This document shows, in pieces, positions 23,957-44,276 of a stretch of DNA of 63,880 nt. Under the pieces are notes generated by a model, which was not told the DNA's origin, made no database searches, and saw only the letters and a program-made list of their open reading frames with translations. The position numbers were made by a program, and so were the translations under genes. This DNA is from a virus (lineage: Duplodnaviria > Caudoviricetes). The first letter of the stretch is position 1. Every line of letters starts with the position of its first letter. The stretch is taken from the IMG/VR virus record IMGVR_UViG_3300022833_000010, positions 1 through 63,880 of that record; one strand, 5' to 3'.

Positions 23957-24214
23957 TTATTCCTTGTAATCAAGGTACTTTTGGTATTGCTCGTCAGTAA
24001 TTTCTACTAAATAGTCTCCGTAATCTTCCTCGTAAAGCTCTGAATAAAATTCAGTTTCATCTTTTGAAACCATAGTACACACTCCTTCGAAACCTTTTTC
24101 TCCTAGAAGTACTCCTATCACTTTGGCTTCGTTAACTTCATCTTCATAGTGTATTTTTACATAAACATTTTTTTCAAGCAAAAGCGAAATCTGATTCAAT
24201 GACTTTAGAAACAT
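23957..24214 (-). CDS. Hypothetical acidic protein
   Basis: ORF track; overlaps the RNAP 3' end. Confidence 0.5.
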   Translation of the reverse strand: MFLKSLNQISLLLEKNVYVKIHYEDEVNEAKVIGVLLGEKGFEGVCTMVSKDETEFYSELYEEDYGDYLVEITDEQYQKYLDYKE

Positions 24215-26510
24215 CTAAGTTTCCTTTCTCTGGGATTAAATGTAGAGCGTCCATCTGACTAAAGATATGCTCTAAGGGTTCTTGTTCGTAAAGTTCAACG
24301 AACTTGTATCTAACATTCATAAACAAGTGGTTCATGTTACCAGCATGGCAACCGAAAGAGTCGTGTACAACTGTAACTTGATAATCAGAATCGTGTACAA
24401 CCATAGTTACGTGAACAGCATCAACACTGTGTACAACATTTGGAGCAGTTGATTGCTTTTGTTTAACTTTGTTTAGTTCTTCTGTTTTCCTTAAACTTAC
24501 ACTAATACGGTACATAGTTTCACCGCGATACAGCTCTACCTGTTTTGTCTTAGTCTCTACATAGAGTTGTACCATAGGGAAGCCTGTGATAACCTGATCA
24601 TAAGATACATGCTTCCCTTTTTGATTTTCAGATACACCGAGCTTCTCAAACATTTCTAACATGTCTGATGGTCCTTTTAGTTCTTTCTTACAAGTGCTGT
24701 AGATTAAGTGGCCTAAGAAAACCGACCAAGAGTAGTCCTTATCACGCAAGTAATCAGAAAGACCACGAGTGTCGTCTTCTACCATATCTACCATACCGTG
24801 TTGAGTACCGCCATAACCGAGTGTCATAACGGGTCTTTTTACACCTTTACGCCAGATTTTACGGTCTTTTACGTTATGCCAAAAAACAGCACCCATTTGT
24901 TTCTTTAAGTCGTAAGTTTGGTTTTTGTATTCTCTTAAGCGAGCTACTGCGTTACGGTAAAGTTCAGAATTACTATTATTACTAAGTTTAGAAATTTCTA
25001 ACTTTAAACTTACTAACGTTTTGAAAACCTTATCAAACTGGTCTGATACTTTCTTTGGTGTCTCTTTTGCTTTTTCAGCAACTACTTCAATTACCTTATC
25101 TGCAATAAACATGTAGACATCCCCCGGAAGTTCTTGAGGTACTAAGTTTACAAGCGGAGCTACATTTTCATCCTTAGACATGGCAGCTAGGTGCTGAACG
25201 CCGTTATTGCTACCGTCGATGTAGATCGGCAGGTTAGAGGGGAAGTCCTCTATGTCTAAGCCTTTGTCGTTTACCCAGACGTTTATTAGAGAAAGTTCGT
25301 AACAGCAAGCCAAGAAGCACAAAGGTTTGTCCGCGTCCATCCAACCATCATTCTCAAGAGGATCTTCTACATAACTTAAATACGTGGACCAGTTTTCTAT
25401 TACAAACTCTGAGCGATCAGCTAGAGTAACTTTGTCGTTACCTAGCATGTTAGCGGTGTGAACTGTGAGCCAGAACATACCATCTTCACCTAGCGTTACA
25501 CTTTCATCTAACAAGAGTAAACCTTTTGCGTTGTCAGAAGATTGTTCGTGCAAGAAGGCAGTGTTAGGATAAATTCTACCGCGAAAGTCGCAGTTGTACA
25601 AGTGGTAGAAAGGATCAAACTGATTTCTTTCTGCTAACCTTTCAATAGCAGCAAGTTCAATTAACAAAGAAGCCTTCTTTTCTGGATCAACTTCTTTCAT
25701 AGCCTTAAAAGGTGTTTTACCTTGGTGTGTCTTTGCCTTCTTAAACACATCGAAAATAAAAGGATTGATCCTCCAACCTACATCACCTAGCTTATTTAAG
25801 GCTTTTACGACGTAATCCATTTGACCTTGTTTTACTTTCTTGATTGCGTCTTGATGAGGTTTTTTCTTGATAATCGGAAAACCAGTGTTGTGAAAGAACT
25901 TTCCACTTTCCCAGTGATCTGGTTTACTACGCATTGGAAATAACTCAACACTATCAATGTCGATTGTTTCCATAATAGAATGAAGTGCTTCAATGTTTTT
26001 TACATTTACATGGTAAGAAGTGTGCTTTTTCTTTCGACCTCCTTTGTTACTACCTACTTTTAAACGTAATGACAGTATCTCTAAATCGAGATAAGCTTGA
26101 AACAAAAACCATGCAAGATGCACTTCTTTGATTTCTACTTTGTTTGATTCTTCTTCTAGTTTTAACTTGCAGTTAGGCAGACCTAGTTTATTGTGAGTTC
26201 CAATAAAGAACCTTAGTTCTTTTAGTTCTGTGTTATCATCATTAACACTTTCTCGCTCAAGCACCTTTACTTTTTTACGTAAGTTCCTAAACATAGCACC
26301 CCCAACGCTTGATAAGGTGTTAGCTAACTCACTTTGCCTTTCTAAGTTTGTAAGAACATGTCCGTAGGTTAGAGTGATGAGTTCTTCTGGATCAAACTGA
26401 TAAAGGATCCAAGCTTTGTTTCTCGTATCTACCTCACTTGATTTGTTTGTTTTCATTAATTGGAGTTGTTGTTGTGTGAGGTTTTCACAGAGCAGCCCCA
26501 TAGTGTTCAT
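24174..26510 (-). CDS. Single-subunit T7-like DNA-directed RNA polymerase (stand-alone)
   Basis: DFRGRIY, IDGSNNGVQHL (motif A), RKGVKRPVMTLGYG (B), PNVVHSVDA, VHDSFG (C), C-terminal FAFA. Confidence 0.97.
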   Translation of the reverse strand: MNTMGLLCENLTQQQLQLMKTNKSSEVDTRNKAWILYQFDPEELITLTYGHVLTNLERQSELANTLSSVGGAMFRNLRKKVKVLERESVNDDNTELKELRFFIGTHNKLGLPNCKLKLEEESNKVEIKEVHLAWFLFQAYLDLEILSLRLKVGSNKGGRKKKHTSYHVNVKNIEALHSIMETIDIDSVELFPMRSKPDHWESGKFFHNTGFPIIKKKPHQDAIKKVKQGQMDYVVKALNKLGDVGWRINPFIFDVFKKAKTHQGKTPFKAMKEVDPEKKASLLIELAAIERLAERNQFDPFYHLYNCDFRGRIYPNTAFLHEQSSDNAKGLLLLDESVTLGEDGMFWLTVHTANMLGNDKVTLADRSEFVIENWSTYLSYVEDPLENDGWMDADKPLCFLACCYELSLINVWVNDKGLDIEDFPSNLPIYIDGSNNGVQHLAAMSKDENVAPLVNLVPQELPGDVYMFIADKVIEVVAEKAKETPKKVSDQFDKVFKTLVSLKLEISKLSNNSNSELYRNAVARLREYKNQTYDLKKQMGAVFWHNVKDRKIWRKGVKRPVMTLGYGGTQHGMVDMVEDDTRGLSDYLRDKDYSWSVFLGHLIYSTCKKELKGPSDMLEMFEKLGVSENQKGKHVSYDQVITGFPMVQLYVETKTKQVELYRGETMYRISVSLRKTEELNKVKQKQSTAPNVVHSVDAVHVTMVVHDSDYQVTVVHDSFGCHAGNMNHLFMNVRYKFVELYEQEPLEHIFSQMDALHLIPEKGNLDVSKVIESDFAFA

Positions 26511-26625
26511 AAGTTATTCCTTTTAGTTAGTGGACGAAGTGTATTCTTAAACACTCCACTTTATTTAAGGACTTTATAACTCTTAGTCTTCCTGAATTAA
26601 TCCTGTTTTAAGACAGATTAATACA

Positions 26626-26634
26626 ATTATAACA
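26626..26634 (-). promoter_or_regulatory. Possible host sigma70 extended -10 (TGTTATAAT) for the RNAP gene
   Basis: TGnTATAAT ~115 nt upstream of the RNAP start, just after a terminator; AT-rich context lowers certainty. Confidence 0.35.
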
Positions 26635-26663
26635 AAAAGAGTCATTTAAAATAGTTCTCCGAG

Positions 26664-26721
26664 AAAAAAAAATTGTTTATAACTCCCCCGCCACCACTCC
26701 GAAGAGCAGCAGCGAGGGGTT
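26664..26721 (-). terminator. Terminator ending the early region
   Basis: CCCTCGCTGCTGCTC-TTCG-GAGTGGTGGCGGGGG (15 bp, several G-U), then a U9 tract about 10 nt downstream. Confidence 0.75.
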
Positions 26722-26732
26722 TTGTTTTATGA

Positions 26733-26975
26733 TTACCCGTCTAGGCGAGGTGTGTTATCCGAGAAGGTTTTAACCCAGTTACGAACCGATAGTTTACAGC
26801 AGTTAAACTCTACTGCTACTTCTTGGATAGGCTTACCAGCAAGAATCATACCGACTGCTTGAAGACGATCTGAGTGAATACGTTTTCCATAAGGGCGGTT
26901 TTGAACAAGAGAGTAGTTAGCACCTTTGGAAAGTTCTTTTGCTGTTGGGAAGTTCCGGCGTACAAAATTAGTCAT
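26733..26975 (-). CDS. Small helix-turn-helix DNA-binding protein
   Basis: RLQAV..IL.G.PIQEVA.EFNC...SVRNWVK; start revised to MTNF. Confidence 0.7.
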   Translation of the reverse strand: MTNFVRRNFPTAKELSKGANYSLVQNRPYGKRIHSDRLQAVGMILAGKPIQEVAVEFNCCKLSVRNWVKTFSDNTPRLDG

Positions 26976-27165
26976 AAAAGCTTTCCTTATTGTTTGTTTT
27001 GGCGTTATCGCCGATAGCTTTAAGTTCTGCAAAAATATCTTCAATTGACTTTTCAACACTATTGTCAACGTAAGTATGAGACCACTGTTTATCAATGTCT
27101 TTTACAAGGTTAGAAAACTTGATTTCTTCTAGGTATTCAGAAGTACCTCTTTTAGCAATTGTCAT
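26968..27165 (-). CDS. Hypothetical protein
   Basis: ORF track. Confidence 0.55.
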   Translation of the reverse strand: MTIAKRGTSEYLEEIKFSNLVKDIDKQWSHTYVDNSVEKSIEDIFAELKAIGDNAKTNNKESFYD

Positions 27166-27194
27166 AGCACACCTTTCTAAGTTTAGTTCAGTCT

Positions 27195-27413
27195 TTACAG
27201 TCGCAACTTCATTTTACTTAACTGTTCTTTGAATTCTTCGTCTACTTTTTCTTCAGTTTTTCCGATTACAAGAAGAATCAACATTACAATTAGTGGACTA
27301 ACTAACAAAGCTGCGATAGTCCAACCTGCTGCGTTACGCCCACGGGATTCGGACATGATATATACAACCCAACACGTGAATGCCAAGACTGCAATAATAA
27401 TAAGAGTTTCCAT
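27195..27413 (-). CDS. Small membrane protein (..RGR...GW.. family)
   Basis: Two TM helices. Confidence 0.65.
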   Translation of the reverse strand: METLIIIAVLAFTCWVVYIMSESRGRNAAGWTIAALLVSPLIVMLILLVIGKTEEKVDEEFKEQLSKMKLRL

Positions 27414-27433
27414 AGTTTTATTCCTTTGTTTAT

Positions 27434-27447
27434 TTCATTATAGAGGG
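27434..27447 (-). promoter_or_regulatory. Class E (early) promoter-like motif, copy 1
   Basis: CCCTCTATAATGAA, intergenic, ~20 nt before ATG. Confidence 0.65.
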
Positions 27448-27467
27448 TGATAATTTCTCAGTTATCT

Positions 27468-28034
27468 TTAAGACTTTTTTAAGGTTTCCCAATCTGGTAC
27501 GCCGTCTTCTGTCTTTACTGTTGCGAGTTGCATTGGAAGGTCGTCAGAGTAAATACGTAAATCAACAACTTCATAAACAGGGACTTTCTTACGATATGCA
27601 ACGCCAAACCCATTGAAACAAGCAATATCATTTGTATAACTACAAACAGCATCTTTATCTGTGAAGAGAATCCAAGGGTTATCTTCTGTTTCAGCGCGCG
27701 ATATCAGTGTGTAAGTACCACAACAGCGTTCAATCTTAAAATCTCCGACTGAGTCATCTTTAATGGTGTAGTAATTAGTAAACCCCTTAACAACATCTCC
27801 AGTCTTTAGGTTCATAGTTTTTGGGAGACCCCTGAAACCAGTCGGAACGTCTTCTTTGACTAGCTCTAGATCAAGGTTGCAAGACCAGTTTCCAAAGTCT
27901 TTACCTCCTGATACTTGTACTGCTGACTGGTTTCCATCAAGATATGTAATAATACCGACGTCCCCTACCTTGTTACAGCTAAGAGCTGCATTACCAATGA
28001 TCTTTACTTTGTCGCCTACTTTGAAATTAGTCAT
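27468..28034 (-). CDS. Hypothetical protein with KVGD modules
   Basis: FKVGDKVKI, NKVGDVG, LKTGDVV. Confidence 0.65.
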   Translation of the reverse strand: MTNFKVGDKVKIIGNAALSCNKVGDVGIITYLDGNQSAVQVSGGKDFGNWSCNLDLELVKEDVPTGFRGLPKTMNLKTGDVVKGFTNYYTIKDDSVGDFKIERCCGTYTLISRAETEDNPWILFTDKDAVCSYTNDIACFNGFGVAYRKKVPVYEVVDLRIYSDDLPMQLATVKTEDGVPDWETLKKS

Positions 28035-28049
28035 TTAGTTATCCTTGGA

Positions 28050-28439
28050 TTATTTGTAAAAGATGTGAGTTCCGACAATAGCTACAATATCATAGCTAGA
28101 AGTCCAGTATGGGCTAACGTAGTCTGCGTGATACATAATAGCGCCGGAAGAAGGCATGTCAATGTTTCCTGATACGTATCCTTCAACAACAGCTTGAGAG
28201 TGTTCCCAAGCTAACTGATCGAGATAAGACATACGTGTTGGGTCGTCATGTTTACCGTCATTTGTCCAAGAGAATTGAGAGTCTTGGAAAACAACAGCAC
28301 ACACTTTGTCTGGGTATTTGTTAGAGACTACTCGGTTCATTGTTACTTCTATGACTGCGAGTTGGCCCATTAAAGGTTCGTTTCTTGCTTCAAAGAACAC
28401 ATTTAAAGAAAGACATAGTGCTGCTGCTGCGGTAATCAT
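28050..28439 (-). CDS. SleB/CwlJ-like cell wall hydrolase (Hydrolase_2)
   Basis: CL..NVFFEARNE...GQ.AV..V..NRV, QFSW, YHADYV.PYW, HIFY. Confidence 0.9.
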   Translation of the reverse strand: MITAAAALCLSLNVFFEARNEPLMGQLAVIEVTMNRVVSNKYPDKVCAVVFQDSQFSWTNDGKHDDPTRMSYLDQLAWEHSQAVVEGYVSGNIDMPSSGAIMYHADYVSPYWTSSYDIVAIVGTHIFYK

Positions 28440-28455
28440 AAGTTATACTCCTGTT

Positions 28456-28815
28456 TTATGTTGGCATTTTTAAGTCGTTATTTTTAGCGTACCTTTCACA
28501 ACGTTCTATAAAAAGAGGTAGATCTGAGTCTAGTTCTAGCCCATCATGTAAGCATTGCAATGACACTAGAAACTCGAGATTACTCCCTAAGTAACTAGGT
28601 AAAACCTCTCTTCCATAGAGATTTGCGACATCAGAACCACCGTTTACTGTATGGTCATCCATTTCCTTTAAGTAGTCTTTATCTTCAATTAAGTGACCGA
28701 TACCACACTTACGACCATTAGGTCCACGATAGAGACAACTCTCTTCAAACCTAGAAGGGCCACCTTGAGCAATTACACCAGATACCGATTTCGAGAACAT
28801 TTCTTGACGTGTCAT
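28456..28815 (-). CDS. Hypothetical protein (C.YRG..G.KC.IG.LI family)
   Basis: Motifs CLYRGPNGRKCGIGHLI and LQ.LHD. Confidence 0.65.
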   Translation of the reverse strand: MTRQEMFSKSVSGVIAQGGPSRFEESCLYRGPNGRKCGIGHLIEDKDYLKEMDDHTVNGGSDVANLYGREVLPSYLGSNLEFLVSLQCLHDGLELDSDLPLFIERCERYAKNNDLKMPT

Positions 28816-28817
28816 AG

Positions 28818-29012
28818 TTATACTCCTGTGTAAATGTTAGGGTTAATCTGAAAACTATCAGATACTTTGATAATCTCAATTTTGCTTAAGAAGTCCTCAC
28901 TCCATTTCATTTGATGTTGATGCACGAAAAATGCTGCATCTGTAATCTTTTCAAAAGGTCCGAAATCACAAACAGTGTTTTCTACGGAAGTTTCTTTTAC
29001 GTACCATTTCAT
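28818..29012 (-). CDS. Hypothetical protein
   Basis: ORF track. Confidence 0.5.
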   Translation of the reverse strand: MKWYVKETSVENTVCDFGPFEKITDAAFFVHQHQMKWSEDFLSKIEIIKVSDSFQINPNIYTGV

Positions 29013-29163
29013 AATGATTTCCTTGTTTTTTCTGATCCATCTTTTGAGATCAACGTGTTAAAACCCATCATACAACAGGCCGCGTAGTATTCTTCAGTTT
29101 CCTTTAAAACATCACAACAGTGAGGTTGTGGGAATACTACTAGTACTTGCATAGTGTTATTTT

Positions 29164-29457
29164 TCATGCTTTAGCCTTACTTTCTTTTGAAGGTTTACTT
29201 TTAGAAATAGCGAACAATCCAAAGTAGTCTATAATGAAAATTCCGAATACCGTTAAAGTTCCGAGAGAGTGGTCGTTTAGCATCATACCTATAGACACAG
29301 GTATTCCGATTAAAGGAAGAGATTTAGCAAAAATAGTTATCTTAAAAAAACTTTCAAAAAAGCTTGCCAAAATCATTCTCAAGGTAAATCCAATAAAAAT
29401 GTCAAGGAAGGGTACTCCAATGTAATCTAACAAAGGAGTTGAAGATAGGGTTTCCAT
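29164..29457 (-). CDS. Membrane protein
   Basis: Hydrophobic segments. Confidence 0.55.
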   Translation of the reverse strand: METLSSTPLLDYIGVPFLDIFIGFTLRMILASFFESFFKITIFAKSLPLIGIPVSIGMMLNDHSLGTLTVFGIFIIDYFGLFAISKSKPSKESKAKA

Positions 29458-29467
29458 AGTTTTATCC

Positions 29468-29761
29468 TTAATTGCTATAAATAGAATATTCTTCTATAAA
29501 GCAAGAAGCTGTGTTTTCGAAGTATTCACGTGGTAAGATCCACTGTTTAAAACTTCCATGTTTATTGTCACCTACACATACAGAGGAGTGCAAGTTGAAG
29601 TGGGGAGGGAGTGTGTCTAACACCACCTCAATAACAACCCCCTTGTTGTACATTGCGGCTTTCTCGTAGTTGTCTGTCCAATGTGTTAAGTTGCGAGTTT
29701 GAATATCTTTGCTCAACTCTTGAGCTTCACGTTGAGTAGTGCCTCTAAAGAATTTGTGCAT
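29468..29761 (-). CDS. Hypothetical protein, possible ADP-ribosyltransferase fold
   Basis: FFRGT ... THWTD....A..Y ... QWIL; start revised to MHKF. Confidence 0.45.
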   Translation of the reverse strand: MHKFFRGTTQREAQELSKDIQTRNLTHWTDNYEKAAMYNKGVVIEVVLDTLPPHFNLHSSVCVGDNKHGSFKQWILPREYFENTASCFIEEYSIYSN

Positions 29762-29804
29762 AGTGTTTCCTATTTGTTTTGTGTACAAAGCCCGTACAAT
29801 TAAG

Positions 29805-29832
29805 TGAACAGTTTTAAACCATGTTCAGGGTC
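29805..29832 (-). ncRNA. 28-nt H-type pseudoknot motif, copy A
   Basis: GACC-C-UGAACA-U-GGUU-UAAAAC-UGUUCA. Confidence 0.6.
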
Positions 29833-29841
29833 GTTAAAATT

Positions 29842-30018
29842 TTACCGATACTTATCTATTATCCAGATATTGAGTAACAATACTGGAGCGCCGAGTAGTA
29901 GTACTGAAATACACATACAGATACGAATAAACATAGGCTCGTCTTGGGAGTAATTCCACATTAAAAATACTAGTGAGAAGATTCCGGCAAGCACGTACAA
30001 TAGCATGAAAGTAGACAT
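29842..30018 (-). CDS. Small membrane protein (58 aa)
   Basis: Not in track; MSTFMLLYVLAGIFSLVFLMWNYSQDEPMFIRICMCISVLLLGAPVLLLNIWIIDKYR; SD GGAG. Confidence 0.6.
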   Translation of the reverse strand: MSTFMLLYVLAGIFSLVFLMWNYSQDEPMFIRICMCISVLLLGAPVLLLNIWIIDKYR

Positions 30019-30020
30019 AG

Positions 30021-30083
30021 GTTGTTCTCCATTTGGGTTATTTGATGTTTCTTCATTATAGAGGGGCGTTTTTCCCCACTTTT
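30021..30083 (-). promoter_or_regulatory. Class E promoter plus leader/RBS cassette, copy 2
   Basis: AAAAGTGGGG-N8-CCCTCTATAATGAAGAAACATCA...GGAGAACAAC; the 45-bp block is 44/45 identical to 30398-30442. Confidence 0.75.
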
Positions 30084-30093
30084 ATCAACATTT

Positions 30094-30396
30094 TTACTTG
30101 TTAATTTTGAGTAACATTTTCAACGCCATGTTTTCTGCACGAAGCTCTGATTGTTTTATAGTCCAGTTTTTGTGAGTTTCCCTGTTACGATCGTTAATTT
30201 CAACAACTGCCAGATACTCTTTATACCAAAAATTCCCGTTAAAAACACGATTAGAAATTTTCTCAACTCTGGAAAGCTTTTCAAATTGGTTTGAATTGCT
30301 TGAGTCAATAATACCGTCCAGTAAAATTTTTCCTTTGGCGGCGAGTCTACGGTTTTCCCATTTCACTTTTTTAGCTTTGAGTTTTGAAAAGATCAT
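30094..30396 (-). CDS. Hypothetical basic protein, first gene of the early region
   Basis: Directly after class E cassette copy 3. Confidence 0.6.
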   Translation of the reverse strand: MIFSKLKAKKVKWENRRLAAKGKILLDGIIDSSNSNQFEKLSRVEKISNRVFNGNFWYKEYLAVVEINDRNRETHKNWTIKQSELRAENMALKMLLKINK

Positions 30397-30397
30397 T

Positions 30398-30460
30398 GTT
30401 GTTCTCCATTTGGGTTATATGATGTTTCTTCATTATAGAGGGCCAAAAACCCCCACTTTT
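30398..30460 (-). promoter_or_regulatory. Class E promoter plus leader/RBS cassette, copy 3
   Basis: Same as copy 2, offset 377 bp. Confidence 0.75.
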
Positions 30461-30465
30461 TTAGC

Positions 30466-30483
30466 ACAAAGCCCGTACAATTA
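30466..30483. repeat. Dispersed motif ACAAAGCCCGTACAATTA
   Basis: Identical 18-mer at 29785-29802; related copies at 6813, 19851, 50637 (+) and 39806, 57669 (-). Confidence 0.7.
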
Positions 30484-30497
30484 CCCAACAATTTGAT

Positions 30498-30527
30498 AAA
30501 AAAGGCCACCCCAATTAAGGGATGACC
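30498..30527 (-). terminator. Intrinsic terminator ending the late operon
   Basis: GGTCATCCC-TTAATT-GGGGTGGCC-TTTTTT. Confidence 0.85.
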
Positions 30528-30533
30528 ATTAGT

Positions 30534-30884
30534 TTATTTTTTAGCAGGTCTTGGTTTAGGTTTAACTTTCGCTACAGTAGGTTTTTTCTTAGCCCACGAT
30601 TTCCTATTCAAGTTATTTTGAGACCGTGTGGCAGGCTTCAAATTAGAAGCTTTGTTGTCAGAACGATCTCTGTTTTTGTGATCTAGCTCAGTAGTAACTT
30701 TTTTACCAGTTGTCATTTCTTTAACAACACGGTGTACGTAATGAGCTTTTCCGTTTACACGAACGGTCTTATACCCGTCTCCATGACTCGTGCCAGCCTC
30801 GGAACCCGCAGCCTTTCGACCGCGAGCCTCCTTCCAGTATAGTTTTCCATCTTTCTGCTTAAAAAGCTTTTTCCACTTTTGCAT
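30534..30884 (-). CDS. HNH endonuclease
   Basis: VHRVV ... LDHKNRDRSDN...NL..AT.SQN..N. Confidence 0.85.
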   Translation of the reverse strand: MQKWKKLFKQKDGKLYWKEARGRKAAGSEAGTSHGDGYKTVRVNGKAHYVHRVVKEMTTGKKVTTELDHKNRDRSDNKASNLKPATRSQNNLNRKSWAKKKPTVAKVKPKPRPAKK

Positions 30885-36053: not shown

Positions 36054-36061
36054 TAGATTAA

Positions 36062-36601: not shown

Positions 36602-36606
36602 TTGTG

Positions 36607-37346: not shown

Positions 37347-37852
37347 TAGTTTGCCCTCCACCAAGTCCTACCTACACCCATTGAGCCTTTTACTAAAAGA
37401 GGTTTAAGTAGCTTATAAGTTGTTGGTGAAGTAATTGGTGTTTTTCCAACATCATTATTACTATCAGAAAGACTAATTGATCCTACAGAAATACTCTCAA
37501 AAGTTTGAGTAGTACCTGCAAGTAAATCCTCATTAGCAACTAGATGTAATGCTTGTTCGTAGACTGCTACCTTCACACGGGCCGGAACCTCGTTCTCAAG
37601 AAACGTTACAGTCATACCTAAACGGGTATCATAGTAAGTTGCATAAGAACGAGGCCAAGCAAGAGCCTGAGATCCACTGATAGCAGAACCAATCCAAGCG
37701 TTATCATCAGTCAATTGAGTTGATGTAACAAGGGCTTGGTCTTTGACTTCATCAGAGATAGTTAACCATTCGGCACTATCAATACGAGTCTCAAAGTAAC
37801 TATCAGCTTCTGCAATAGTGACATAGCTGTTTTCATTTAGAACTAATGTCAT
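37346..37852 (-). CDS. Head-tail adaptor
   Basis: NSYVT.AEAD.YF ... QALAWPR ... P..VK.A..E.A. Confidence 0.8.
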   Translation of the reverse strand: MTLVLNENSYVTIAEADSYFETRIDSAEWLTISDEVKDQALVTSTQLTDDNAWIGSAISGSQALAWPRSYATYYDTRLGMTVTFLENEVPARVKVAVYEQALHLVANEDLLAGTTQTFESISVGSISLSDSNNDVGKTPITSPTTYKLLKPLLVKGSMGVGRTWWRAN

Positions 37853-37870
37853 TAGTGCGCTCTCTTTCTA

Positions 37871-38989: not shown

Positions 38990-39024
38990 AGTTTTTTATT
39001 CCTTGGAGTTTTTTAGTCTAATGA

Positions 39025-39732
39025 TTAGACATTAAAGTTACCTAGCTGGCCTTTTGCGGCTTGAGCTAGAATTTCTTGCGTAGACATTTCCATAATGGAC
39101 TTGCTTACATCGGTGTTAATTTTACCGTCATTGTTATTTGTCCCGCCGCCAGTATTAGACTTAGTACGGAACAAGAAAGAGTTGCCTTCTTCTTTTGCAT
39201 AGGCGGCAGTGTAGTCACGAATACTAGTACCGCCAGTGTGTGACCAAGAACCATCTTCGTTTTGAACGAGTTGGTCTACAATCTCACGTCGAGCCATATC
39301 TCTTGACTTATCGTTTCGGAAATCCATTCCTGAGAGTGCATCGTTGAGGACACCGTCCCGTTTGAGTTGTGTAGTTTCAGTAGCGTATTCTGCAAGACGG
39401 GTACGAGCTTCAGATAGCTCAAGTTCGAGTGCTTCTTGTACTTTACCTTCTTCTTTCATACGGGCAATAGTCGCTTCTTTGGCTGCTTTCTCAGCAGTCA
39501 CCTTATCTTTCAAAAGACCATCGCGTTCAGTAGCCATTTTATCCATGTTAGCTTTCATCTTAGCAAGACGTTCTTCAACGATTGCTTCGAGTTCTTCTTC
39601 AGGTGTTTTTGGTGTCTTGTCGCTTTCGTCTTCCTCATCTTTAATTCGTTGCGCTTCAACTTCTGCAGCGAGTCGTTCGACTTCTTTTTCAGCAGCGAGT
39701 TTGTCGTTAGCAGCAATTTCTTCAGGTGTCAT
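39025..39732 (-). CDS. Capsid scaffolding protein
   Basis: Charged coiled coil directly upstream of the capsid gene; LF.....GGG. Confidence 0.8.
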   Translation of the reverse strand: MTPEEIAANDKLAAEKEVERLAAEVEAQRIKDEEDESDKTPKTPEEELEAIVEERLAKMKANMDKMATERDGLLKDKVTAEKAAKEATIARMKEEGKVQEALELELSEARTRLAEYATETTQLKRDGVLNDALSGMDFRNDKSRDMARREIVDQLVQNEDGSWSHTGGTSIRDYTAAYAKEEGNSFLFRTKSNTGGGTNNNDGKINTDVSKSIMEMSTQEILAQAAKGQLGNFNV

Positions 39733-39745
39733 AGTATTTCCTTCT

Positions 39746-39793
39746 CAAGCACAGCTTGGATTAATAATTTGTTATGTTTCGAGTCACAGACTC
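39746..39793 (-). promoter_or_regulatory. Two hairpins with identical loops in the scaffold leader
   Basis: GAGTC-TGT-GACTC (39781-39793) and CAAGC-TGT-GCTTG (39746-39758, abutting the SD). Confidence 0.55.
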
Positions 39794-39836
39794 TTTTGTT
39801 TTTAGTAATTGTACGGGCCTTGCCTATTACAAATAT

Positions 39837-42800
39837 TCAGGGGCCGATGCCGTACCAGTCATTTCCGGGACGGATAGCTTCAACAATTTCAGAAGGAGTA
39901 ATCTTATTAACAGGGTCAATAAGTCCGTCATCTTTTGCGCGTTGTAAGTATAGTTTATAAGTCTTGTTTGAAAGACCAGCCTTGCGCATTGCTGCGAGGG
40001 TTTGTTTAATAGTACCTTGTTCTAGAGCATTTGCATAGATCTGTCTCAAGGCAAATTTAGCGGGAACCGCCTTACCTAAGTTTGTGAAGAAAGCATCGTG
40101 GATAGTTCCAGTTTCCACGTTATTCTTCGCGCCCCATAAGTGAAATTGTCGGACAATTACAGCATCGTTACTGTGATTACCGTTAACACCTAGCCCAATG
40201 GAAGCTTCTTGAATGGACTGTTGGGATGCAAACTTGTCATCCTTACTCGGTGCTTCGTATATGTTGAAGACTTTTTGATCTGTAATTGGATCTTTAAAGT
40301 CTATTCTTACTTGTTCCTTTACACGGTAACGTTGTAACATGGTTTTACCATCGAACGTAACCCAAGGAATATCTACTGATCCCGACTCTTTTACAAAGTC
40401 TTTCGCAATATCTTTCCAGAAGTTAATAAACTTACCAGTAACAGGAACTTCCTTTTCCAACTGACGTGACATAATTGCTGAAATCTTAGCGAATAAACGA
40501 GTACCTACAAGGTCTCCTGTTTCATCGGTTAGCTTCATTAAAAATGTGTGCATGTCTTCGGAGTTCTTCATACCTTCTCTAAACTCTGACCTTGCGGTTT
40601 CATAAAGAGAGTCGGTTATAGAGTTACCTTCTTTCGAGGCAGCTACTACTTGTTTCTTGATGTCTCGTAATTCATCAATACGAGTCCAGTTTTTTCTGTC
40701 CATTTCGAAGCTAATCTTAGCATCGATAGCGGCTTTAAACTTATCAACTTCTTTTGTTGAAATTGCAATCTTACCTTTCTTTGCTAGAACATCGGCAAAC
40801 TTATTAGCTACGTTTGCAGCTTTAGTTGCGTCTCCGGCACCATAAAAGGCAACCATGTTTTGATTCTTGGCAGCTTTCATAAGGTCTGTCCAGTTAAGAT
40901 CGAGATCAGCCAACTCAGGGATAGCTAGAAACTCAGGATCGTCAACTGTACGTTTTGCAATTTCATCATAAAGTCTTTGTTTCTTAGAAGTCTGAAGTAC
41001 ATTAGATAGTTCACCTGCAGCACGATCTCCTGTAGACAAGGAAATGATTTGAGCGCCAGAAGAACTAGCATCATTTTCAATCATCATCTTTGTTTTGTAT
41101 TCAGAGATTAGTTTTAAATCATCAGGTGTCCACTTAGACTTGTCAATTAACATTTTACCACCCATATGTCTATGTATACGGGTGTATTCTAATGCTAGTC
41201 GAGCGAGTTTACCTACTTCTTTTTCTTCAGTAGCTGCTACTAGTGGGTTAGAAAGAAATTCTTTGACTCTTCGATCAGGCTGAGTTGAACTCAACATATA
41301 ATCTCCGATTTTTAACAGGTTGTCTTCTTGCTCTTTAAAGGCATTAAGTCTTCCTTTTAGTGTCAAAGTGTCTAAAGGACTCCCCACCAAGGCACCAATC
41401 TGAACTTGAAGTTCTTCTAAGGCGTCCGCATCAATATTGTAAGCTTTGGCAGTGTTCAAGAAAGGACGTACAGCTTCACCCTTTGTAGGTGTTAGTAGCC
41501 CACGGTGATACACTCGACCACGAAAGTCAATAGAGGCGTCTACAGAGAAAGCTTGGTTACGTTGACGATGATACTTAGCTGTTGCTAAAACACCACGACC
41601 ATCATTACCACGAGACATAAAGAGTTTCTTCCACTCGTTCATATCATCCCACTTTTTAGCTTCACCACGTTTGTCGTTGAAGTAAATAACTCTTTCTGCG
41701 AAGTCAAAATACTCACTATCAACTTCATACTTAACTGAAGTAGCGTGGTTCAACATTGTAGAAATATCTCTGTCAATTTGATTTACATCGTAATCGGCAT
41801 AAACCTTTTCAGAAACAACAGGCATAGTGGTCTTACGGCCTCTGGCATCAAAGTACTCTTTACTTCCAGCCCTAGCATAAATCTTATCTCTAGGATGATA
41901 AATGCCAAAACGTCTAGCTGTTCGTGCTTTTTCAGCAGCAATTTGTAACTGACGCATAGGGCCGTTTACAATAGTAAGTTGCCGAGATACACTAATACCG
42001 CGTAATGCCTTATCACTAACTGGTCTACCTGTTTCTAAGTCAATAGGCGAAGAAGTACCAATATCTCTAAGAGTTGTTGTCCGTATCATTCCTTGCTTCT
42101 CAAGAGAGTTTATAACTCGGCTTCCGTCCTTGTGGAAGTCTTTAAGAGATTTAGAGCGTAACGGGTTCAGAGAACCTAACTCTTTATCAAACATTTGTCC
42201 AATCTTAATAGCAAGAAGATCATAATCGGCACCATCTGCTGTAGCAATAGCTTCCATTGCTTTTGCAGTAGCCTTGATAGTCTTCTCTTTTAAGTTGTCT
42301 AAAGCAAGTTTACGGTCTCTATTGTATAAAAACTCTAAGTCTAGAAATTCTCTAGCTTTGCCTCTAACATTTGAAATCTGCGAAGTGATCCAGCTGTCTG
42401 TTGGAGGTTTTGTTTTAAACAATTCTTTTATGTTTTTGCGTTTTGTTTCACTTACAAACAAATCTAAAAGCTTTTTAACAAGCTCCTTACGATTTGGGTA
42501 CAACTTGATAATTGGTTGAGTGTAAGCTGCTAAAGGCGCTTTACCATTAAAATAAGATTTCTTTGCTAACTTAGCTCCGTACTTACCTCTCCAAGTTTCA
42601 ATATAGCGATTATCTGCAATTTGACTATCTACAAGTTCAGAAATGGTATACTTTTTACCAAACAAAAATACTTCAGGATCATCTGCTAGTTTTGCAGTCA
42701 AGTTCCCAAATAGCTTACCGCGATCTGTTGATCGGTTAAACATTAAAGTACCTAAGTCTTGCACAGCATTGATAGTGAACTTTCTCATTACAGAAGTTGG

Positions 42801-44276
42801 TTTACCCCAAGGCTCACCACTAACGTTAGAACGAGTAAATGTTTGTCGAAGAACGTCAGTAATAACCGATCGTTGATTAATAGAAACGTCTCTGCCTAGA
42901 TCTGAAACAAAGTCTTTAATAAATTTCTTTTGAGCAAGTTCTAAACCTTCGCTATCCTGAACTCTTGCGAGCCTTTCAGTAAGAATGTCTGGTTCTTGTA
43001 CTTGAAGGTGACGACCTGCATTACTTGTGTAGTCTGTACCACTAGCAGACATAACCGAGCCTTCTCGACTGTTCTTAAAAGAACGTCTGCTACCTTGCTT
43101 TTGTGAAAGAGAGTTGCCTTTAAAATCAGTCAAAGCCAAAGCTTGAGCATTTTCTGCTGCGTCATTCTTAAAGTGATCTAGCAAGGCGGATCTATTTGCT
43201 TTAGACTCCATTAGTTCTTTAGGGTTAGAAAATCTTAAAGTCGTATTGCTATCGTTGGTCGAAGTAGGGCGCTTAATAGTTTGATTTGCTCTACGCATTA
43301 ACCCCATAATAGAAAGTGCTTTGCCTTCTGGAGAAACAAACTCTGAAGCTTCTAACTTACCGTCTTGGAATAGTTTAGCTTGACGCTCACCACCTAACAT
43401 TTTAATCTGTACGTTAGATCCTTGTGTACGCAGCCAAGCGGAGTAAGTTCGAATAGCTGGCATTATACCCGTTAGTTCTGAAGGGTGTATTTTTTCTAAG
43501 TTCCTAGGTTTTACGTTAGCTAAAGGAAGACTTAATAGTTCCTCTTGACTCTTGATTACAGGAACCATTGTTGATCGGCACTGCCAGTGCAAAGGAGGTT
43601 TGAACCTCTCGTCACCAATATCATAAACTTTACCGTTGTGATAAGAGCATACAGCGCTTGTTCTACCATCTAGGATCGCAGTAAACATAAACCCACTGAT
43701 CAAGTCAGAGTTTGCAGACATAACGCTATTCAAGGCGTTCGTTTGTGTTGCTGTAATAGAGGTTCTAGTTAAAGTACGTGCCTGATGTTCTGTAATCTTA
43801 GTTGTTTTTAAAACATCATCGATAATTTCATCAGGTGTTAACCCTTTAGCAAGTCCACCTTTTACTTTAGTTTGAATACGGACTAGTTCACCAGAAGCAA
43901 TGTTTTTAACATTACCAGAAAGAGACTTAACACCTTTAATCTGAGGGCCAGTAATCTCAAGGAGAAGGTCTTTAGTCTTTGGTTTTTGAAGTCTATAGAA
44001 GTTTTTCACTTCTGCGTTTAAGTTATTTGTGTGGAAAACAGTCTGGGAGTTGCTAAAGTCTAGCATACTCTTAACGTTGTGATCATTTAATTCTTTAGCA
44101 AAACGAGTTACCTCGGGTTTGACATTAGACCTCAAGTTTCCTTTTAGAAGGTCTCTAAGGTTAAACCTGTGTTTTTTAAGAATTGTATTATTCTTCGCTT
44201 GGACTCCGTTTTCGTATAAACGTACATCACCGCTATGGTCAACAATACGGTCAAAGATCTTTTCGTTAATAGACAT
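39837..44276 (-). CDS. MuF/SPP1 gp7 head morphogenesis domain fused to a T7-like RNA polymerase (putative virion RNAP)
   Basis: N-terminal ARTLTRT, FTAILDGRTSAVC, PPLHWQCRST; C-terminal DFRGRVY, NDASSSGAQI, K-x7-YG (AKNQNMVAFYG), NHSNDA, IHDAF; lies between portal and scaffold. Confidence 0.92.
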   Translation of the reverse strand: MSINEKIFDRIVDHSGDVRLYENGVQAKNNTILKKHRFNLRDLLKGNLRSNVKPEVTRFAKELNDHNVKSMLDFSNSQTVFHTNNLNAEVKNFYRLQKPKTKDLLLEITGPQIKGVKSLSGNVKNIASGELVRIQTKVKGGLAKGLTPDEIIDDVLKTTKITEHQARTLTRTSITATQTNALNSVMSANSDLISGFMFTAILDGRTSAVCSYHNGKVYDIGDERFKPPLHWQCRSTMVPVIKSQEELLSLPLANVKPRNLEKIHPSELTGIMPAIRTYSAWLRTQGSNVQIKMLGGERQAKLFQDGKLEASEFVSPEGKALSIMGLMRRANQTIKRPTSTNDSNTTLRFSNPKELMESKANRSALLDHFKNDAAENAQALALTDFKGNSLSQKQGSRRSFKNSREGSVMSASGTDYTSNAGRHLQVQEPDILTERLARVQDSEGLELAQKKFIKDFVSDLGRDVSINQRSVITDVLRQTFTRSNVSGEPWGKPTSVMRKFTINAVQDLGTLMFNRSTDRGKLFGNLTAKLADDPEVFLFGKKYTISELVDSQIADNRYIETWRGKYGAKLAKKSYFNGKAPLAAYTQPIIKLYPNRKELVKKLLDLFVSETKRKNIKELFKTKPPTDSWITSQISNVRGKAREFLDLEFLYNRDRKLALDNLKEKTIKATAKAMEAIATADGADYDLLAIKIGQMFDKELGSLNPLRSKSLKDFHKDGSRVINSLEKQGMIRTTTLRDIGTSSPIDLETGRPVSDKALRGISVSRQLTIVNGPMRQLQIAAEKARTARRFGIYHPRDKIYARAGSKEYFDARGRKTTMPVVSEKVYADYDVNQIDRDISTMLNHATSVKYEVDSEYFDFAERVIYFNDKRGEAKKWDDMNEWKKLFMSRGNDGRGVLATAKYHRQRNQAFSVDASIDFRGRVYHRGLLTPTKGEAVRPFLNTAKAYNIDADALEELQVQIGALVGSPLDTLTLKGRLNAFKEQEDNLLKIGDYMLSSTQPDRRVKEFLSNPLVAATEEKEVGKLARLALEYTRIHRHMGGKMLIDKSKWTPDDLKLISEYKTKMMIENDASSSGAQIISLSTGDRAAGELSNVLQTSKKQRLYDEIAKRTVDDPEFLAIPELADLDLNWTDLMKAAKNQNMVAFYGAGDATKAANVANKFADVLAKKGKIAISTKEVDKFKAAIDAKISFEMDRKNWTRIDELRDIKKQVVAASKEGNSITDSLYETARSEFREGMKNSEDMHTFLMKLTDETGDLVGTRLFAKISAIMSRQLEKEVPVTGKFINFWKDIAKDFVKESGSVDIPWVTFDGKTMLQRYRVKEQVRIDFKDPITDQKVFNIYEAPSKDDKFASQQSIQEASIGLGVNGNHSNDAVIVRQFHLWGAKNNVETGTIHDAFFTNLGKAVPAKFALRQIYANALEQGTIKQTLAAMRKAGLSNKTYKLYLQRAKDDGLIDPVNKITPSEIVEAIRPGNDWYGIGP

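Follow-up and report, generated by a model that had tools for sequence, protein, structure and literature searches.

Two T7-type RNA polymerases and two promoter classes in phages related to the marine roseophage DSS3_VP1 suggest a possible N4-like transcription cascade

Gene content of the locus

The window, by which we mean the whole stretch of DNA analyzed (63,880 nucleotides, record IMGVR_UViG_3300022833_000010), is an IMG/VR phage record that is 93% complete and syntenic with the roseophage DSS3_VP1 (Naomiviridae). A gene-content comparison placed it in this family by its gene order and the core genes in common with DSS3_VP1. Like the window, DSS3_VP1 and DSS3_PM1 (Naomiviridae/Noahvirus, siphoviruses with dU-DNA) have this gene order, an intron in the terminase region, and a tRNA ahead of the fusion gene described below. 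Both of their RNA polymerases (RNAPs), as well as their DNA polymerase, primase-helicase, exonuclease, PhoH, and SSB, share 38 to 50% identity with those of the window. Among the virion-type genes are those for the tape measure and the major tail protein. The coordinates of the features are collected in Table 1.

The initial annotation had proposed two divergent single-subunit RNAP genes, one free (778 aa) and one fused to a MuF domain (1,479 aa), and both open reading frames and their Pfam domains were confirmed. Judged by its sequence, the free enzyme is clearly a T7-like single-subunit RNAP. Among PDB entries it matched T7 RNAP (1aro_P, E = 2.3e-51), with DGS..GxQH, KRxxMTxxYG, HDSFG, and the terminal FAFA aligned, and it shares 43% identity with the protein annotated as RNAP in DSS3_VP1. 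Its profile matched that of the fusion polymerase with a probability of 97.9% at 17% identity, so that the two are very divergent. The hairpin in the gap 5' of the free RNAP gene, which the terminator scan did not list, may be an attenuator; the corresponding gap of the related locus L008 also has a hairpin of this kind with a T-run.

The fusion gene is located between the portal and the scaffold/capsid genes, in the order portal, three tRNAs, fusion. Its N-terminal part carries PF04233 (Phage_Mu_F, residues 134 to 237, E = 4.8e-10, 40.6 bits versus a cutoff of 29.6) and its C-terminal part PF00940 (RNA_pol, residues 1057 to 1429, E = 7.3e-07, 28.8 bits versus a cutoff of 22), in a layout with the MuF module at about residues 1 to 340 and a complete T7-like RNAP at about 381 to 1479. 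The polymerase motifs DxRGR (917 to 921), A (D1069), B (K1134/K1137, Y1145-G1146), and C (D1394) are conserved in the DSS3_VP1 counterpart. Across 25 homologues, with identities as low as 18%, R921, D1069, K1134, K1137, Y1145, G1146, and D1394 never vary, which speaks for an active enzyme that is selected to stay joined to the head module. For the AF2 model of the polymerase part (pLDDT 82.2, pTM 0.80), the best Foldseek match was T7 RNAP (3e2e_A, E = 1.2e-19, probability 1.00, TM 0.46/0.59), aligned over ca. 1,000 columns, and mitochondrial RNAPs were also matched. Used as a single sequence, the whole fusion gave no phmmer match in the PDB sequences; only a two-sequence fusion profile reached T7 RNAP (E = 8e-04), with N4 RNAP II at E = 1.6. 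The N4 mini-vRNAP gave no chain up to E = 10 with this profile and was absent among the Foldseek matches listed. Since the polymerase module is closer to T7 and mitochondrial RNAPs than to the N4 mini-vRNAP, an origin independent of N4 is plausible. Sequence and model together indicate that the polymerase part is a T7-like single-subunit RNAP with a predicted T7 RNAP fold, while its domain and adjacency to the portal gene would make the whole protein a minor head protein of the MuF / SPP1 gp7 type. A complex prediction for the portal with MuF residues 1 to 345 scored 0.00, which speaks neither for nor against binding.

Single-protein scans of IMG/VR found only one locus for the fusion and five for the free RNAP, and alignment queries were used instead (the 25-row fusion alignment was too diverse as a search query). 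Relatives are encoded by 125 clusters (50% identity) and by 422 stretches of IMG/VR. None of the 10 representative clusters carries a name, and in the roseophages the annotation of the fusion (1,463 aa in DSS3_VP1) goes no further than “minor head protein-like” or “head morphogenesis.” The MuF module is N-terminal in the window and in six of six distant representatives, the fusion is present in all five long related records that carry the free RNAP, and the portal protein is 66 to 82% identical (alignment A5) in five of five related records. The layout of two RNAPs and two promoter classes is family-wide in the large uncultured family around DSS3_VP1.

Table 1. Features of the window, in order of position
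Feature	Position	Strand	Basis and remarks
ML promoter at the low-coordinate end of the record	1055..1073	-	exact 19-mer
ML promoter 5' of the 5'-3' exonuclease gene; primase-helicase and RNR further 3'	14124..14142	-	exact 19-mer
Terminator T2, after the SSB gene, closing the early block	23269..23297	-	hairpin + T-run
Gp2.5-like SSB, acidic C-terminal tail ending in F	23326..23877	-	phrog_112, E = 5.1e-06; own ML-to-T2 unit
ML promoter for the SSB gene	23937..23955	-	exact 19-mer; predicted +1 = G at 23939
Free T7-like RNAP, 778 aa, ending in SDFAFA	24174..26510	-	PF00940, E = 3.1e-76
GC-rich hairpin, then T-run	26664..26719	-	sequence reading; in the 222-nt gap 5' of the free RNAP gene
Class E promoter E3, last before the free RNAP gene	27435..27467	-	exact 14-mer; predicted +1 = G at 27436
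Class E promoter E2	30053..30085	-	exact 14-mer; predicted +1 = G at 30054; 5'UTR common to E1
Class E promoter E1 (-31 to +2), 5' of a 100-aa ORF	30430..30462	-	exact 14-mer; predicted +1 = G at 30431
Terminator T1, end of the late (tape-measure) operon, just 5' of E1	30499..30527	-	hairpin + T-run
MuF-RNAP fusion, putative virion RNAP, 1,479 aa	39837..44276	-	Pfam, motifs, AF2, Foldseek
Portal protein, directly 5' of the tRNAs and the MuF-RNAP gene	44757..46331	-	PF13264 (DUF4055), E = 4.1e-07
ML promoter, second 5' of portal-tRNAs-MuF-RNAP-scaffold-capsid-tail	46494..46512	-	exact 19-mer
ML promoter, first of two 5' of the portal gene	46626..46644	-	exact 19-mer

Promoter classes and terminators

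Two repeated promoter-like motifs had been noted previously in this DNA, and both were recovered as exact copies, all of them intergenic and on the minus (gene) strand. Class ML, AATACCCGCAAATAATGAT, is a 19-mer with five copies and no further match in the window with up to three mismatches; shuffled sequences gave a mean of 0.01 matches, and five were reached in 0 of 100. The signal comprises AAATAC at -17 to -12, a lineage-specific segment at -11 to -5, and G at +1. T7-type promoters are ca. 20 bp long, AT-rich at -17 to -13, specific to the polymerase lineage at -11 to -5, and have a purine at +1, and class ML can be classified among them on the basis of its sequence. The genes behind it are those for SSB, the exonuclease, portal/head, and packaging. 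By analogy with the DSS3_VP1 sites at 2250 and 2341 ahead of the terminase, the copy at the low-coordinate end is probably the promoter of a packaging/tail module whose remainder lies at the opposite end of the record. With only five sites in the window, and none between 23269 and 14142, transcription of the DNA polymerase genes would have to run through T2.

A search for ML in the relatives by 12-mers repeated within ten long loci was too noisy, and its position after the free RNAP gene proved a usable guide instead. An ML copy was found 178 to 341 nt 3' of the free RNAP stop in 25 loci placed by pattern (1,293 nt in DSS3_VP1), and further loci have the same motif after the RNAP gene at about 178 to 341 nt. 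This position is conserved across at least eight lineage-specific versions, such as CCCGCAAATAATG, GGGCGGAATAATG, and CCTGACGTTAAAG. DSS3_VP1 has GGGTGCGTTAAAG, and its ML-type promoter ATAGGGTGCGTTAAAGAGG has 13 sites with that context; its SSB homologue, 38% identical to that of the window, is likewise behind the phage's own promoter copies. In the L029/L030 lineage, ML begins with TAATACGAC, which we take to resemble the T7 promoter.

Class E, CCCTCTATAATGAA, has three exact copies (30442-30429, 30065-30052, and 27447-27434). Three copies were reached in 1 of 100 shuffles, so that within the window alone this class is weakly above chance, and its significance comes from the relatives. In 75 related loci (984,421 bases), the core [CT]CTATAA[TC]GA occurs 131 times in the forward and 0 times in the reverse orientation. 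At least one copy lies within 5 kb of the RNAP gene in 43 of the 45 loci having >3 kb upstream; of the two others, DSS3_VP1 has its copies further upstream, after the tape-measure gene, and L081 has a variant. Among the 14 loci with a flank of 9.5 kb or more downstream of the fusion gene, 8 have the core; the other six lack it within the 10-kb flank, and this count carries little weight. The complete signal spans 33 bp, with A6-sTGrGrAAA at -31 to -17, CCCTC or GCATC at -11 to -7, TATAAT at -6 to -1, and G at +1, and conservation extends from this G into the initial transcribed sequence (GAAGAAA or GATAyAA). Class E is frozen family-wide, whereas ML co-varies with the lineage of the free RNAP. 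The common 5'UTR marks E1 and E2 as a local duplication.

Both classes had been described as having an ATAATGA core in common, a heptamer that occurs 32 times in the window versus 11.25 expected. This is true of the lineage of the window, but elsewhere class E accompanies ML cores of the TTAAAG type. The spaced pattern CCCTCT-N10-ATAATGA gave three matches versus 1.29 expected, none of them real, as the true motif has no gap between its two halves. We also considered a hairpin of the kind found at N4 early promoters, which are DNA hairpins with a 5- to 7-bp stem and a 3-nt loop. It was rejected as a general feature of class E, given that a hairpin can form at 2 of 48 a-type versus 13 of 25 b-type sites (for the b-type a small GGGG/CCCC hairpin, which appeared in 6% of shuffles).

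The strong terminators of the initial annotation are T1 and T2, two near-identical hairpins followed by T-runs. Their pattern matched only these two places in the window with up to three mismatches, had 0 matches in 100 shuffles, and recurs as the same hairpin at the same two places in the relatives L008, L019, and L022. The three E sites and the free RNAP gene all lie between T1 and T2. The initial annotation had the terminators delimit an early from a middle/late promoter region; as a correction to this, the SSB gene and its ML copy are also inside the bracket, just 5' of T2. The two promoter sets never mix in position. Assembled RNA contigs from three metatranscriptome runs of one study, derived from relatives 95 to 99% alike and unable to show 5' ends, were deepest at 23315-23924, from just after the predicted ML +1 to T2 (depths of 21.7, 10.1, and 6.3). 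The next-deepest bin had 12.2, 2.99, and 1.93 in the same runs, and all other bins were at most 3.4. Elsewhere in 13000-32000 the cover was thin, and uncovered parts carry no meaning. We take the depth over 23315-23924 as a weak hint of an ML-to-T2 SSB unit.

Assignment of polymerases to promoters

The presence of two distant T7-type RNAPs along with two separate T7-type promoter sets suggests that these phages run their genes without the host polymerase. Class E stands at the start of the operon to which the free RNAP gene belongs, so that another enzyme must initiate it. The sequence pattern fits a pairing in which the free RNAP would read ML and the MuF-RNAP would read class E. The former half is well supported by analogy and by co-variation, each ML type accompanying its own specificity-loop sequence, a relation confounded by phylogeny. 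In six related genomes (15 non-independent pairs, the loop being delimited by weak HMMER alignments to T7), the identity of the specificity loop of the free RNAP was 0.436 versus 0.605 for the polymerase domain, while that of the virion enzyme was 0.634 versus 0.615. The fast-diverging loop of the free RNAP, together with the varying ML, strengthens the pairing, and the conserved loop of the virion enzyme next to a frozen class E matches a reading of class E by the MuF-RNAP. The D or E at the position of the virion enzyme aligned to T7 N748 does not track CCCTC/GCATC, as DSS3_VP1 has D with GCATC. In the Pelagibacter phage Kolga (n = 1), the free RNAP is related, the MuF protein lacks a polymerase, and the class E motif is absent. 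A sigma70 scan of its early region gave 22 sites versus 21.6 expected and is uninformative in DNA of 30% GC.

Overall, we regard an N4-style, largely host-independent cascade built from two T7-family single-subunit RNAPs as moderately probable. The MuF-RNAP would be made late, from the head-gene operon, and its MuF module would carry it into the procapsid; from the MuF fusion and the gene position, the head-fused enzyme is probably packed and injected with the DNA. In the next infection it would enter the cell with the DNA and start at class E just after T1. The resulting transcripts, encoding small early proteins and the free 778-aa RNAP, would end at T2, and the free RNAP would then read ML ahead of the genes for SSB, replication, the head (MuF-RNAP among them), and packaging/tail.

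The early step could alternatively be of the T7/Xp10 type, with host sigma70 reading class E as a -10-only promoter (aided by the upstream A-tract element or a phage factor), the free RNAP reading ML, and the MuF-RNAP having another job, such as DNA entry or a late function. All three window copies do have a perfect TATAAT, as do most of the 73 unique sites in relatives, and both RNAPs are ca. 43 to 45% identical between the window and DSS3_VP1, yet only ML has changed, so a universal host -10 box would explain the frozen class E more simply. However, the last T of the sigma70 -10 hexamer is nearly invariant, and whole lineages have TATAAC (L008, 2 of 2 copies; L022/L024, 3 of 3) or TATATA (L081, 2 of 2) in every copy, which argues against a reading by host sigma70. 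At 16 to 18 bp upstream, the class E consensus is AAAAgT / AAAgTG, with no TTGACA-like box at 16 to 18 bp and no TGn extension, and a two-hexamer promoter scan listed none of the three E sites. With neither a -35 box nor TGn, and with a last T that varies, class E does not look like a sigma70 promoter at the sequence level. Its +1 G and first bases are conserved, and its CCCTC/GCATC-N6-G geometry matches T3/T7 promoters, which have the spacing of CCCTC-N6-G. Under host reading, moreover, the virion-module RNAP, although conserved and catalytically intact, would have no template class. PHROGs gave no sigma factor among the 9 submitted of the 12 early-block ORFs, nor for SSB. We judge this arrangement to be rather unlikely.

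It is improbable, in our view, that there are no separate promoter classes, for instance with the free RNAP active on E as well as ML and the injected enzyme limited to a first unspecific or end-initiated round of transcription or to genome entry. Both enzymes are T7-like, and in the lineage of the window the two classes have positions -5 to +2 (ATAATGA) and the CC at -11 and -10 in common. They differ, though, everywhere upstream of -12 and at -9 to -6, the stretch on which the specificity of T7-type promoters mainly depends; most lineages combine a TTAAAG core in ML with an unchanged TATAATG in E, and the separate positions of the two sets also speak against a joint reading. Expression of the fusion from a late-type (ML) operon would be in keeping with a MuF-RNAP that is neither packaged nor injected, that is, a new polymerase of the late stage or an assembly protein with a polymerase fold, in phages whose early transcription depends on the host. 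We hold this to be very unlikely considering the invariant catalytic residues, the fusion architecture kept in the six distant representatives, and the description of MuF fusions as head-delivered effectors in the portion of Iyer et al. (2017, PMC5512222) available to us.

Comparison with other phage transcription programs

The favored cascade, with its probable packaging and proposed pairing, would be a variant of the N4-type strategy that we did not find described in print. In N4 and the Schitoviridae, as proposed here, a virion-borne T7-family RNAP starts infection, a phage RNAP of the early region takes over, and a few early promoters cluster at the start of the early region. However, the N4 vRNAP has ca. 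3,500 aa with a central mini-vRNAP, against a 1,479-aa MuF fusion in the window, and the fusion profile matched no mini-vRNAP chain up to E = 10. N4 RNAP II consists of two subunits, whereas the second enzyme of the window is a single 778-aa chain. The tape measure and major tail protein genes are a further difference, as is the promoter hairpin, which is not a feature of this family. The late stage of N4 is run by the host RNAP, and such a stage is not indicated here.

T7-like podoviruses and Xp10 siphoviruses have one T7-like RNAP, with early genes read by the host RNAP, and the free RNAP and ML are of this kind; promoters of ca. 20 bp, AT-rich at -17 to -13, lineage-specific at -11 to -5, and with G at +1, as well as hairpin-plus-U terminators, are common to both. 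In contrast to them, the window has an extra RNAP in the virion module and a longer second promoter class in place of recognizable sigma70 early promoters. The logic of a packaged RNAP for early genes and a second one later is also that of the jumbo phages AR9/PBS2 and phiKZ and of the crAss-like phage phi14:2, but their enzymes are multisubunit or two-barrel and outside the T7 family. MuF effectors of temperate phages and SPP1 gp7 resemble the fusion in having an N-terminal MuF module with a C-terminal enzymatic cargo and a gene that adjoins the portal gene. Here, the cargo is an RNA polymerase of 1,100 aa, a fusion absent from the available portion of Iyer et al. (2017, PMC5512222).

We found no description in the literature of a two-RNAP, two-promoter cascade in DSS3_VP1-type phages or of a fusion between MuF and a T7-like RNA polymerase. 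In the available main-text passages of the DSS3_VP1 paper, “RNA polymerase” and “RNAP” occur 0 times, all 13 matches to “polymerase” refer to DNA polymerase, and virion protein analysis is absent; its supplements (PMC8323127) may hold proteomics or promoter data. The family around DSS3_VP1 is reported to be abundant but under-sampled in the sea (PMC12669031, in the part available).

More tentatively, and with less confidence than in the cascade itself, we propose that a fully host-RNAP-independent program arose in siphoviruses apart from N4 by the fusion of a complete T7-type RNAP to MuF, with the injected enzyme reading an unusually long (33-bp) bipartite promoter frozen across a globally abundant marine/saline family while the free RNAP and its promoters diversify. 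If true, this would be a second, independently built N4-type strategy, assembled from different parts in a different virion type. RNAP autonomy may then also let family members use dU-DNA, in parallel with AR9/PBS2, which carry dU-DNA and have two polymerases of their own. A homologue of the dCMP deaminase of DSS3_VP1 was not detectable in the window, whose DNA is present in ordinary metagenome runs (X1-X6), compatible with either the presence or the absence of dU.

The “minor head protein” of hundreds of viral contigs would be re-annotated as a polymerase, and the MuF delivery of a 165-kDa enzyme through a long tail becomes a testable question. The ML types that co-vary with the specificity loop would provide many natural orthogonal polymerase/promoter pairs, and the other polymerase offers a long, invariant promoter. 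A cultured member of the family exists in DSS3_VP1, which grows on Ruegeria pomeroyi DSS-3.

The two polymerases and their genomic setting

Both RNA polymerase (RNAP) genes proposed in the initial annotation are present with the lengths and domains it had assigned (ORF calls, Pfam): a free enzyme of 778 aa and a 1479-aa protein in which the polymerase follows a MuF domain (the fusion, or virion enzyme). The free enzyme matches T7 RNAP with an E value of 2.3e-51 and has FAFA as its C terminus. The polymerase part of the fusion is too divergent for a single-sequence search of the PDB; a two-sequence profile is co-linear with T7 RNAP over DxRGR, motif A, and the region from the specificity loop to motif C, and residues R921, D1069, K1134, K1137, Y1145, G1146, and D1394 are invariant among 25 homologues with identities down to 18%. 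An AlphaFold2 model of residues 381 to 1479 (pLDDT 82.2, pTM 0.80) had T7 RNAP (3e2e_A) as its top Foldseek match (E 1.2e-19, ca. 1000 aligned columns) and mitochondrial RNAPs next, and the N4 mini-vRNAP chain was absent among the matches listed. By the profile alignment, the invariant residues, and the match of the model, the part behind MuF is a complete T7-type enzyme, including the N-terminal domain. The two polymerase families are homologous (profile-profile comparison, 97.9%) yet share 17% identity, which rules out a recent duplication as their source.

Relatives of the free RNAP were found at 74 IMG/VR loci (42 to 71% identity, alignment query) and those of the fusion polymerase part in 422 IMG/VR stretches. 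Among 1.84 billion representatives, HMMER found 125 clusters of the fusion polymerase, 53 of them at E ≤1e-30 and many with 1400 to 1560 aa. Long records with the free RNAP also carried the fusion (5/5), and the N-terminal MuF was kept in all six distant fusion representatives. The feature is real and family-wide, as is, judging from sequence, the two-polymerase design.

In a 78% identical relative (L013), 864 nt (13421-14284) interrupt the fusion gene exactly after residue 1142, inside motif B, and in EBPR siphovirus 1 (JF412302 gp47/gp48/gp49; L015, 21272-26645) an HNH endonuclease gene lies at that same point; the interruption resembles insertion of a mobile intron or an intein-type element at the most conserved site. 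The searched part of EBPR siphovirus 1 (50 kb) contained the fusion, and the free RNAP was not found in it. The free RNAP match spans ca. 2695 nt in L074 (2144-4838) and L075 (2192-4886) versus the usual ca. 2190, which suggests that this gene holds an insertion too.

The window is an entire linear IMG/VR virus record (63,880 bases; CheckV 93%; G+C 39%), tiled by 102 ORFs of ≥40 aa that were chosen greedily, without overlaps, from the minus strand alone. Of the ORFs with at least 150 aa, 39 are on the minus strand, and each of the six on the plus strand is nested in or overlaps a longer one on the minus strand. Read as transcribed, the terminase large subunit gene, cut by the record end, is followed by genes for tail fibres, PhoH, and a 1182-aa tail protein with a Phage-tail_3 domain; then come the portal, three tRNAs, the fusion, scaffold, major head and major tail proteins, and the tape measure; downstream are small ORFs without known function, the free RNAP, and lastly SSB, DNA polymerase A, 5'-3' exonuclease, primase-helicase, class II RNR, and ClpP. 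The tape measure and major tail protein fit a siphovirus, as does the lack of a sheath gene among the scanned window proteins.

The nearest named phages are the roseophages DSS3_VP1 (VP1) and DSS3_PM1, with both polymerases 43% identical and synteny throughout; the main text of PMC8323127 presents them as type members of the dU-DNA family Naomiviridae, with siphovirus morphology. The VP1 terminase is likewise split (intron-containing, according to its authors), a tRNA-Asn occupies the place of the three tRNAs, and the counterpart of the 1182-aa tail protein is annotated as host specificity protein J. A homologue of the VP1 dCMP deaminase was not found in the window, and ordinary metagenome runs contain DNA of the window phage. 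In the VP1 record (MN602266; L006, L007), 10- and 12-mers recur at the two ends (positions 4-113 and 74964-75087), suggesting either an assembly overlap or a terminal repeat of ca. 120 bp; should the record ends be real, the class E promoters (see below) lie mid-genome and not at a leading end.

Features of the window, with predicted promoter sites of class ML
Feature	Position	Strand	Remark
Group I intron	62832-63099	-	Rfam RF00028, 76.8 bits, full model; in terminase large-subunit region
Hairpin, 11-bp stem	46535-46562	-	between two ML promoters upstream of portal
Tandem direct repeat, ca. 23 nt (tagtttaagtatatctaaag...)	about 46420-46475	-	between second ML promoter and portal start
tRNA-Thr-TGT, tRNA-Arg-TCT, tRNA-Asn-GTT	44380-44632	-	fill portal/MuF-RNAP gap
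MuF-RNAP fusion	39837-44276	-	1479 aa
Terminator T1	30527-30499	-	
GC-rich hairpin, then T-run	26664-26719	-	in 222-nt gap just upstream of free RNAP
Free RNAP	24174-26510	-	778 aa
gp2.5-like SSB	23326-23877	-	acidic C-terminal tail, last residue F; own promoter-to-terminator unit (predicted)
Terminator T2	23297-23269	-	
Nucleoside 2-deoxyribosyltransferase-like ORF	21581-22024	-	
S-adenosylmethionine-lyase-like ORF	15029-15496	-	below Pfam cutoff
ClpP protease	6484-7110	-	E 2.7e-31
ML site before SSB			one-gene unit, ends at T2
ML site before exonuclease and replication genes			
Two ML sites before portal/head/tail operon			operon includes fusion gene
ML site at record end			leads into packaging genes

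Promoter classes and terminators

The two repeated motifs reported initially, here class ML (putative middle/late promoters) and class E (putative early promoters), were both recovered, the former as an exact 19-mer in five copies (reached by 0/100 shuffles; no further window copy with up to 3 mismatches) and the latter as an exact 14-mer in three. All copies in the window are intergenic and on the gene strand. A class ML copy lies 178 to 341 nt past the free RNAP stop in 25 loci placed by one search pattern, and at about that distance in further loci; in VP1 the distance is 1293 nt. The motif consists of AAATAC, AATTAC, or AAATAG, six to eight lineage-specific bases, and TAATG or TAAAG. The window and L008 to L011 (related loci) share CCCGCAAATAATG, other lineages carry GGGCGGAATAATG, CCCGTGACTAATG, CCTGACGTTAAAG, or CCTGACCTTAAAG, and VP1 has GGGTGCGTTAAAG, with 13 sites in that context. 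One lineage (L029/L030) starts with TAATACGAC, the nine bases that open the T7 promoter, a register that puts +1 at the G of ATAATG. Every version pairs with a distinct free-RNAP sequence in the stretch aligned to the T7 specificity loop, and class ML is, by this comparison, a predicted T7-type promoter evolving together with the free RNAP.

Terminators had been proposed to delimit the early region. T1 and T2 are indeed near-identical hairpins with a T-run, unique in the window. They bracket the three E sites and the free RNAP gene, with 11 small ORFs upstream of this gene and a twelfth, of 85 aa, overlapping its 3' end, but also one ML site and the SSB gene. PHROGs named no sigma factor for the nine of these 12 ORFs submitted, nor for SSB. 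The hairpin just upstream of the free RNAP gene could be an attenuator limiting polymerase expression. L008 has a similar element in the same gap. In Logan contigs from three metatranscriptome runs of one study, 95 to 99% like the window, the deepest stretch was 23315-23924 (depths of 21.7, 10.1, and 6.3; adjoining bin, 12.2, 2.99, and 1.93; other bins, ≤3.4), between the predicted ML +1 (23939) and T2; contigs cannot prove ends, and these give a weak hint of an SSB unit running from that +1 to T2.

Taken by itself, the window gives weak evidence for class E: only three copies exist, two belong to a duplication extending over the 5'UTR, and 1/100 shuffles match the count. VP1 carries GCATCTATAATGA twice right after the tape-measure gene and once elsewhere. 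Across 75 related loci (984,421 bases), the core [CT]CTATAA[TC]GA has 131 gene-strand occurrences versus 0 on the opposite strand. Among loci with >3 kb upstream of the RNAP gene, 103 of the 114 placed copies lie ≤4 kb upstream of it, and 43/45 loci carry one or more copies within 5 kb; the exceptions are VP1 (copies 6.2 to 6.7 kb upstream) and L081 (two copies of the variant CCCTCTATATAAAGAAAC). The consensus of 73 unique sites, numbered from the predicted +1 G, reads aAAAAA-s-TG-r-G-r-aAA from -31 to -17, is weakly AT-rich from -16 to -12, and continues with s-C-m-T-C (-11 to -7), TATAAT (-6 to -1), and GA (+1, +2); the selection pattern fixed -8 to +2, and the upstream part, loosely required, is plain in the raw listing. 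Two sub-types, GCATC-TATAATGA-TAyAA and that of the window, CCCTC-TATAA[T/C]GA-AGAAA, occur together in one genome (L010, in a 4:1 ratio). CCCTC or GCATC plus six bases and G is the spacing of T3 and T7 promoters. At the level of sequence, class E is a conserved putative early promoter whose core resembles that of T7/T3 promoters and which extends further upstream.

Proposed assignment of the enzymes to the promoter classes

Class ML precedes the head operon with the fusion gene, and class E precedes the free RNAP gene, so the free RNAP would be unable to start class E in a new infection. In six related genomes with both enzymes, mean pairwise identity of the free RNAP fell from 0.605 for the polymerase domain to 0.436 for the specificity-loop stretch, versus 0.615 and 0.634, respectively, for the virion enzyme, with loop borders from weak alignments. 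The enzyme with the drifting loop would match the drifting class ML, and that with the held loop the frozen class E. In Pelagibacter phage Kolga, a single and distant case, the free RNAP is related (31% identity), the MuF protein (633 aa) lacks a polymerase, and the class E motif was not found. The free RNAP very probably reads class ML.

Class E might instead be read by the host polymerase. Parsimony weighs most against the pairing of class E with the virion enzyme: both polymerases are equally diverged between the window and VP1 but change is confined to ML, and TATAAT is the universal host -10 box. Class E sites have no TTGACA-like hexamer 16 to 18 bp upstream and no TGn before the hexamer. 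The last T of the hexamer is among the two bases most critical to sigma70; it is replaced by C or A in every copy of L008 (2/2), L022/L024 (3/3), and L081 (2/2), with mixed copies in L027 (1/3) and L037 (1/2). Such a change throughout a genome's class E copies looks like co-evolution with a phage enzyme. We consider reading by the host unlikely and lean slightly towards the full two-polymerase cascade, in which the long and frozen early promoter would be used by a T7-type polymerase delivered via MuF, and the fast-evolving middle/late promoters by the free one.

The VP1 records annotate the free RNAP and label the fusion just "minor head protein-like protein" or "head morphogenesis." Neither "RNA polymerase" nor "RNAP" occurs in the main text of PMC8323127; its 13 mentions of "polymerase" concern DNA polymerase and two of "transcri" an intron. 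RNA polymerase is likewise unmentioned in the available text of a 2025 single-particle study of Naomiviridae relatives (PMC12669031). The available part of Iyer et al. 2017 (PMC5512222) describes N4-like virion RNAPs as confined to N4-like phages and MuF as fused to various effector domains, and a MuF-RNAP fusion was not found there. A literature search on MuF or virion RNAPs and siphovirus two-RNAP schemes, with supplements and subscription journals outside its reach, returned no description. The feature is best read as the N4 strategy assembled independently, with packaging and pairing hypothetical. Common to N4 and the window phage would be a virion-delivered polymerase for early promoters and then a second phage polymerase; if this reading holds, what is new is an N4-like strategy built from two T7-type polymerases, one MuF-delivered and one free.

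A small hairpin is possible at 13/25 sites of the window's E sub-type versus 2/48 of the GCATC sub-type, and an N4-type hairpin promoter is therefore rejected as a general rule for class E. The geometry of N4 early promoters, a 6-bp stem closed by a 3-nt loop, is beyond most sites; some of the CCCTC type, in L025, L085, and the second E site of L008, can form it (GGGGTA-ATC-TACCCC).
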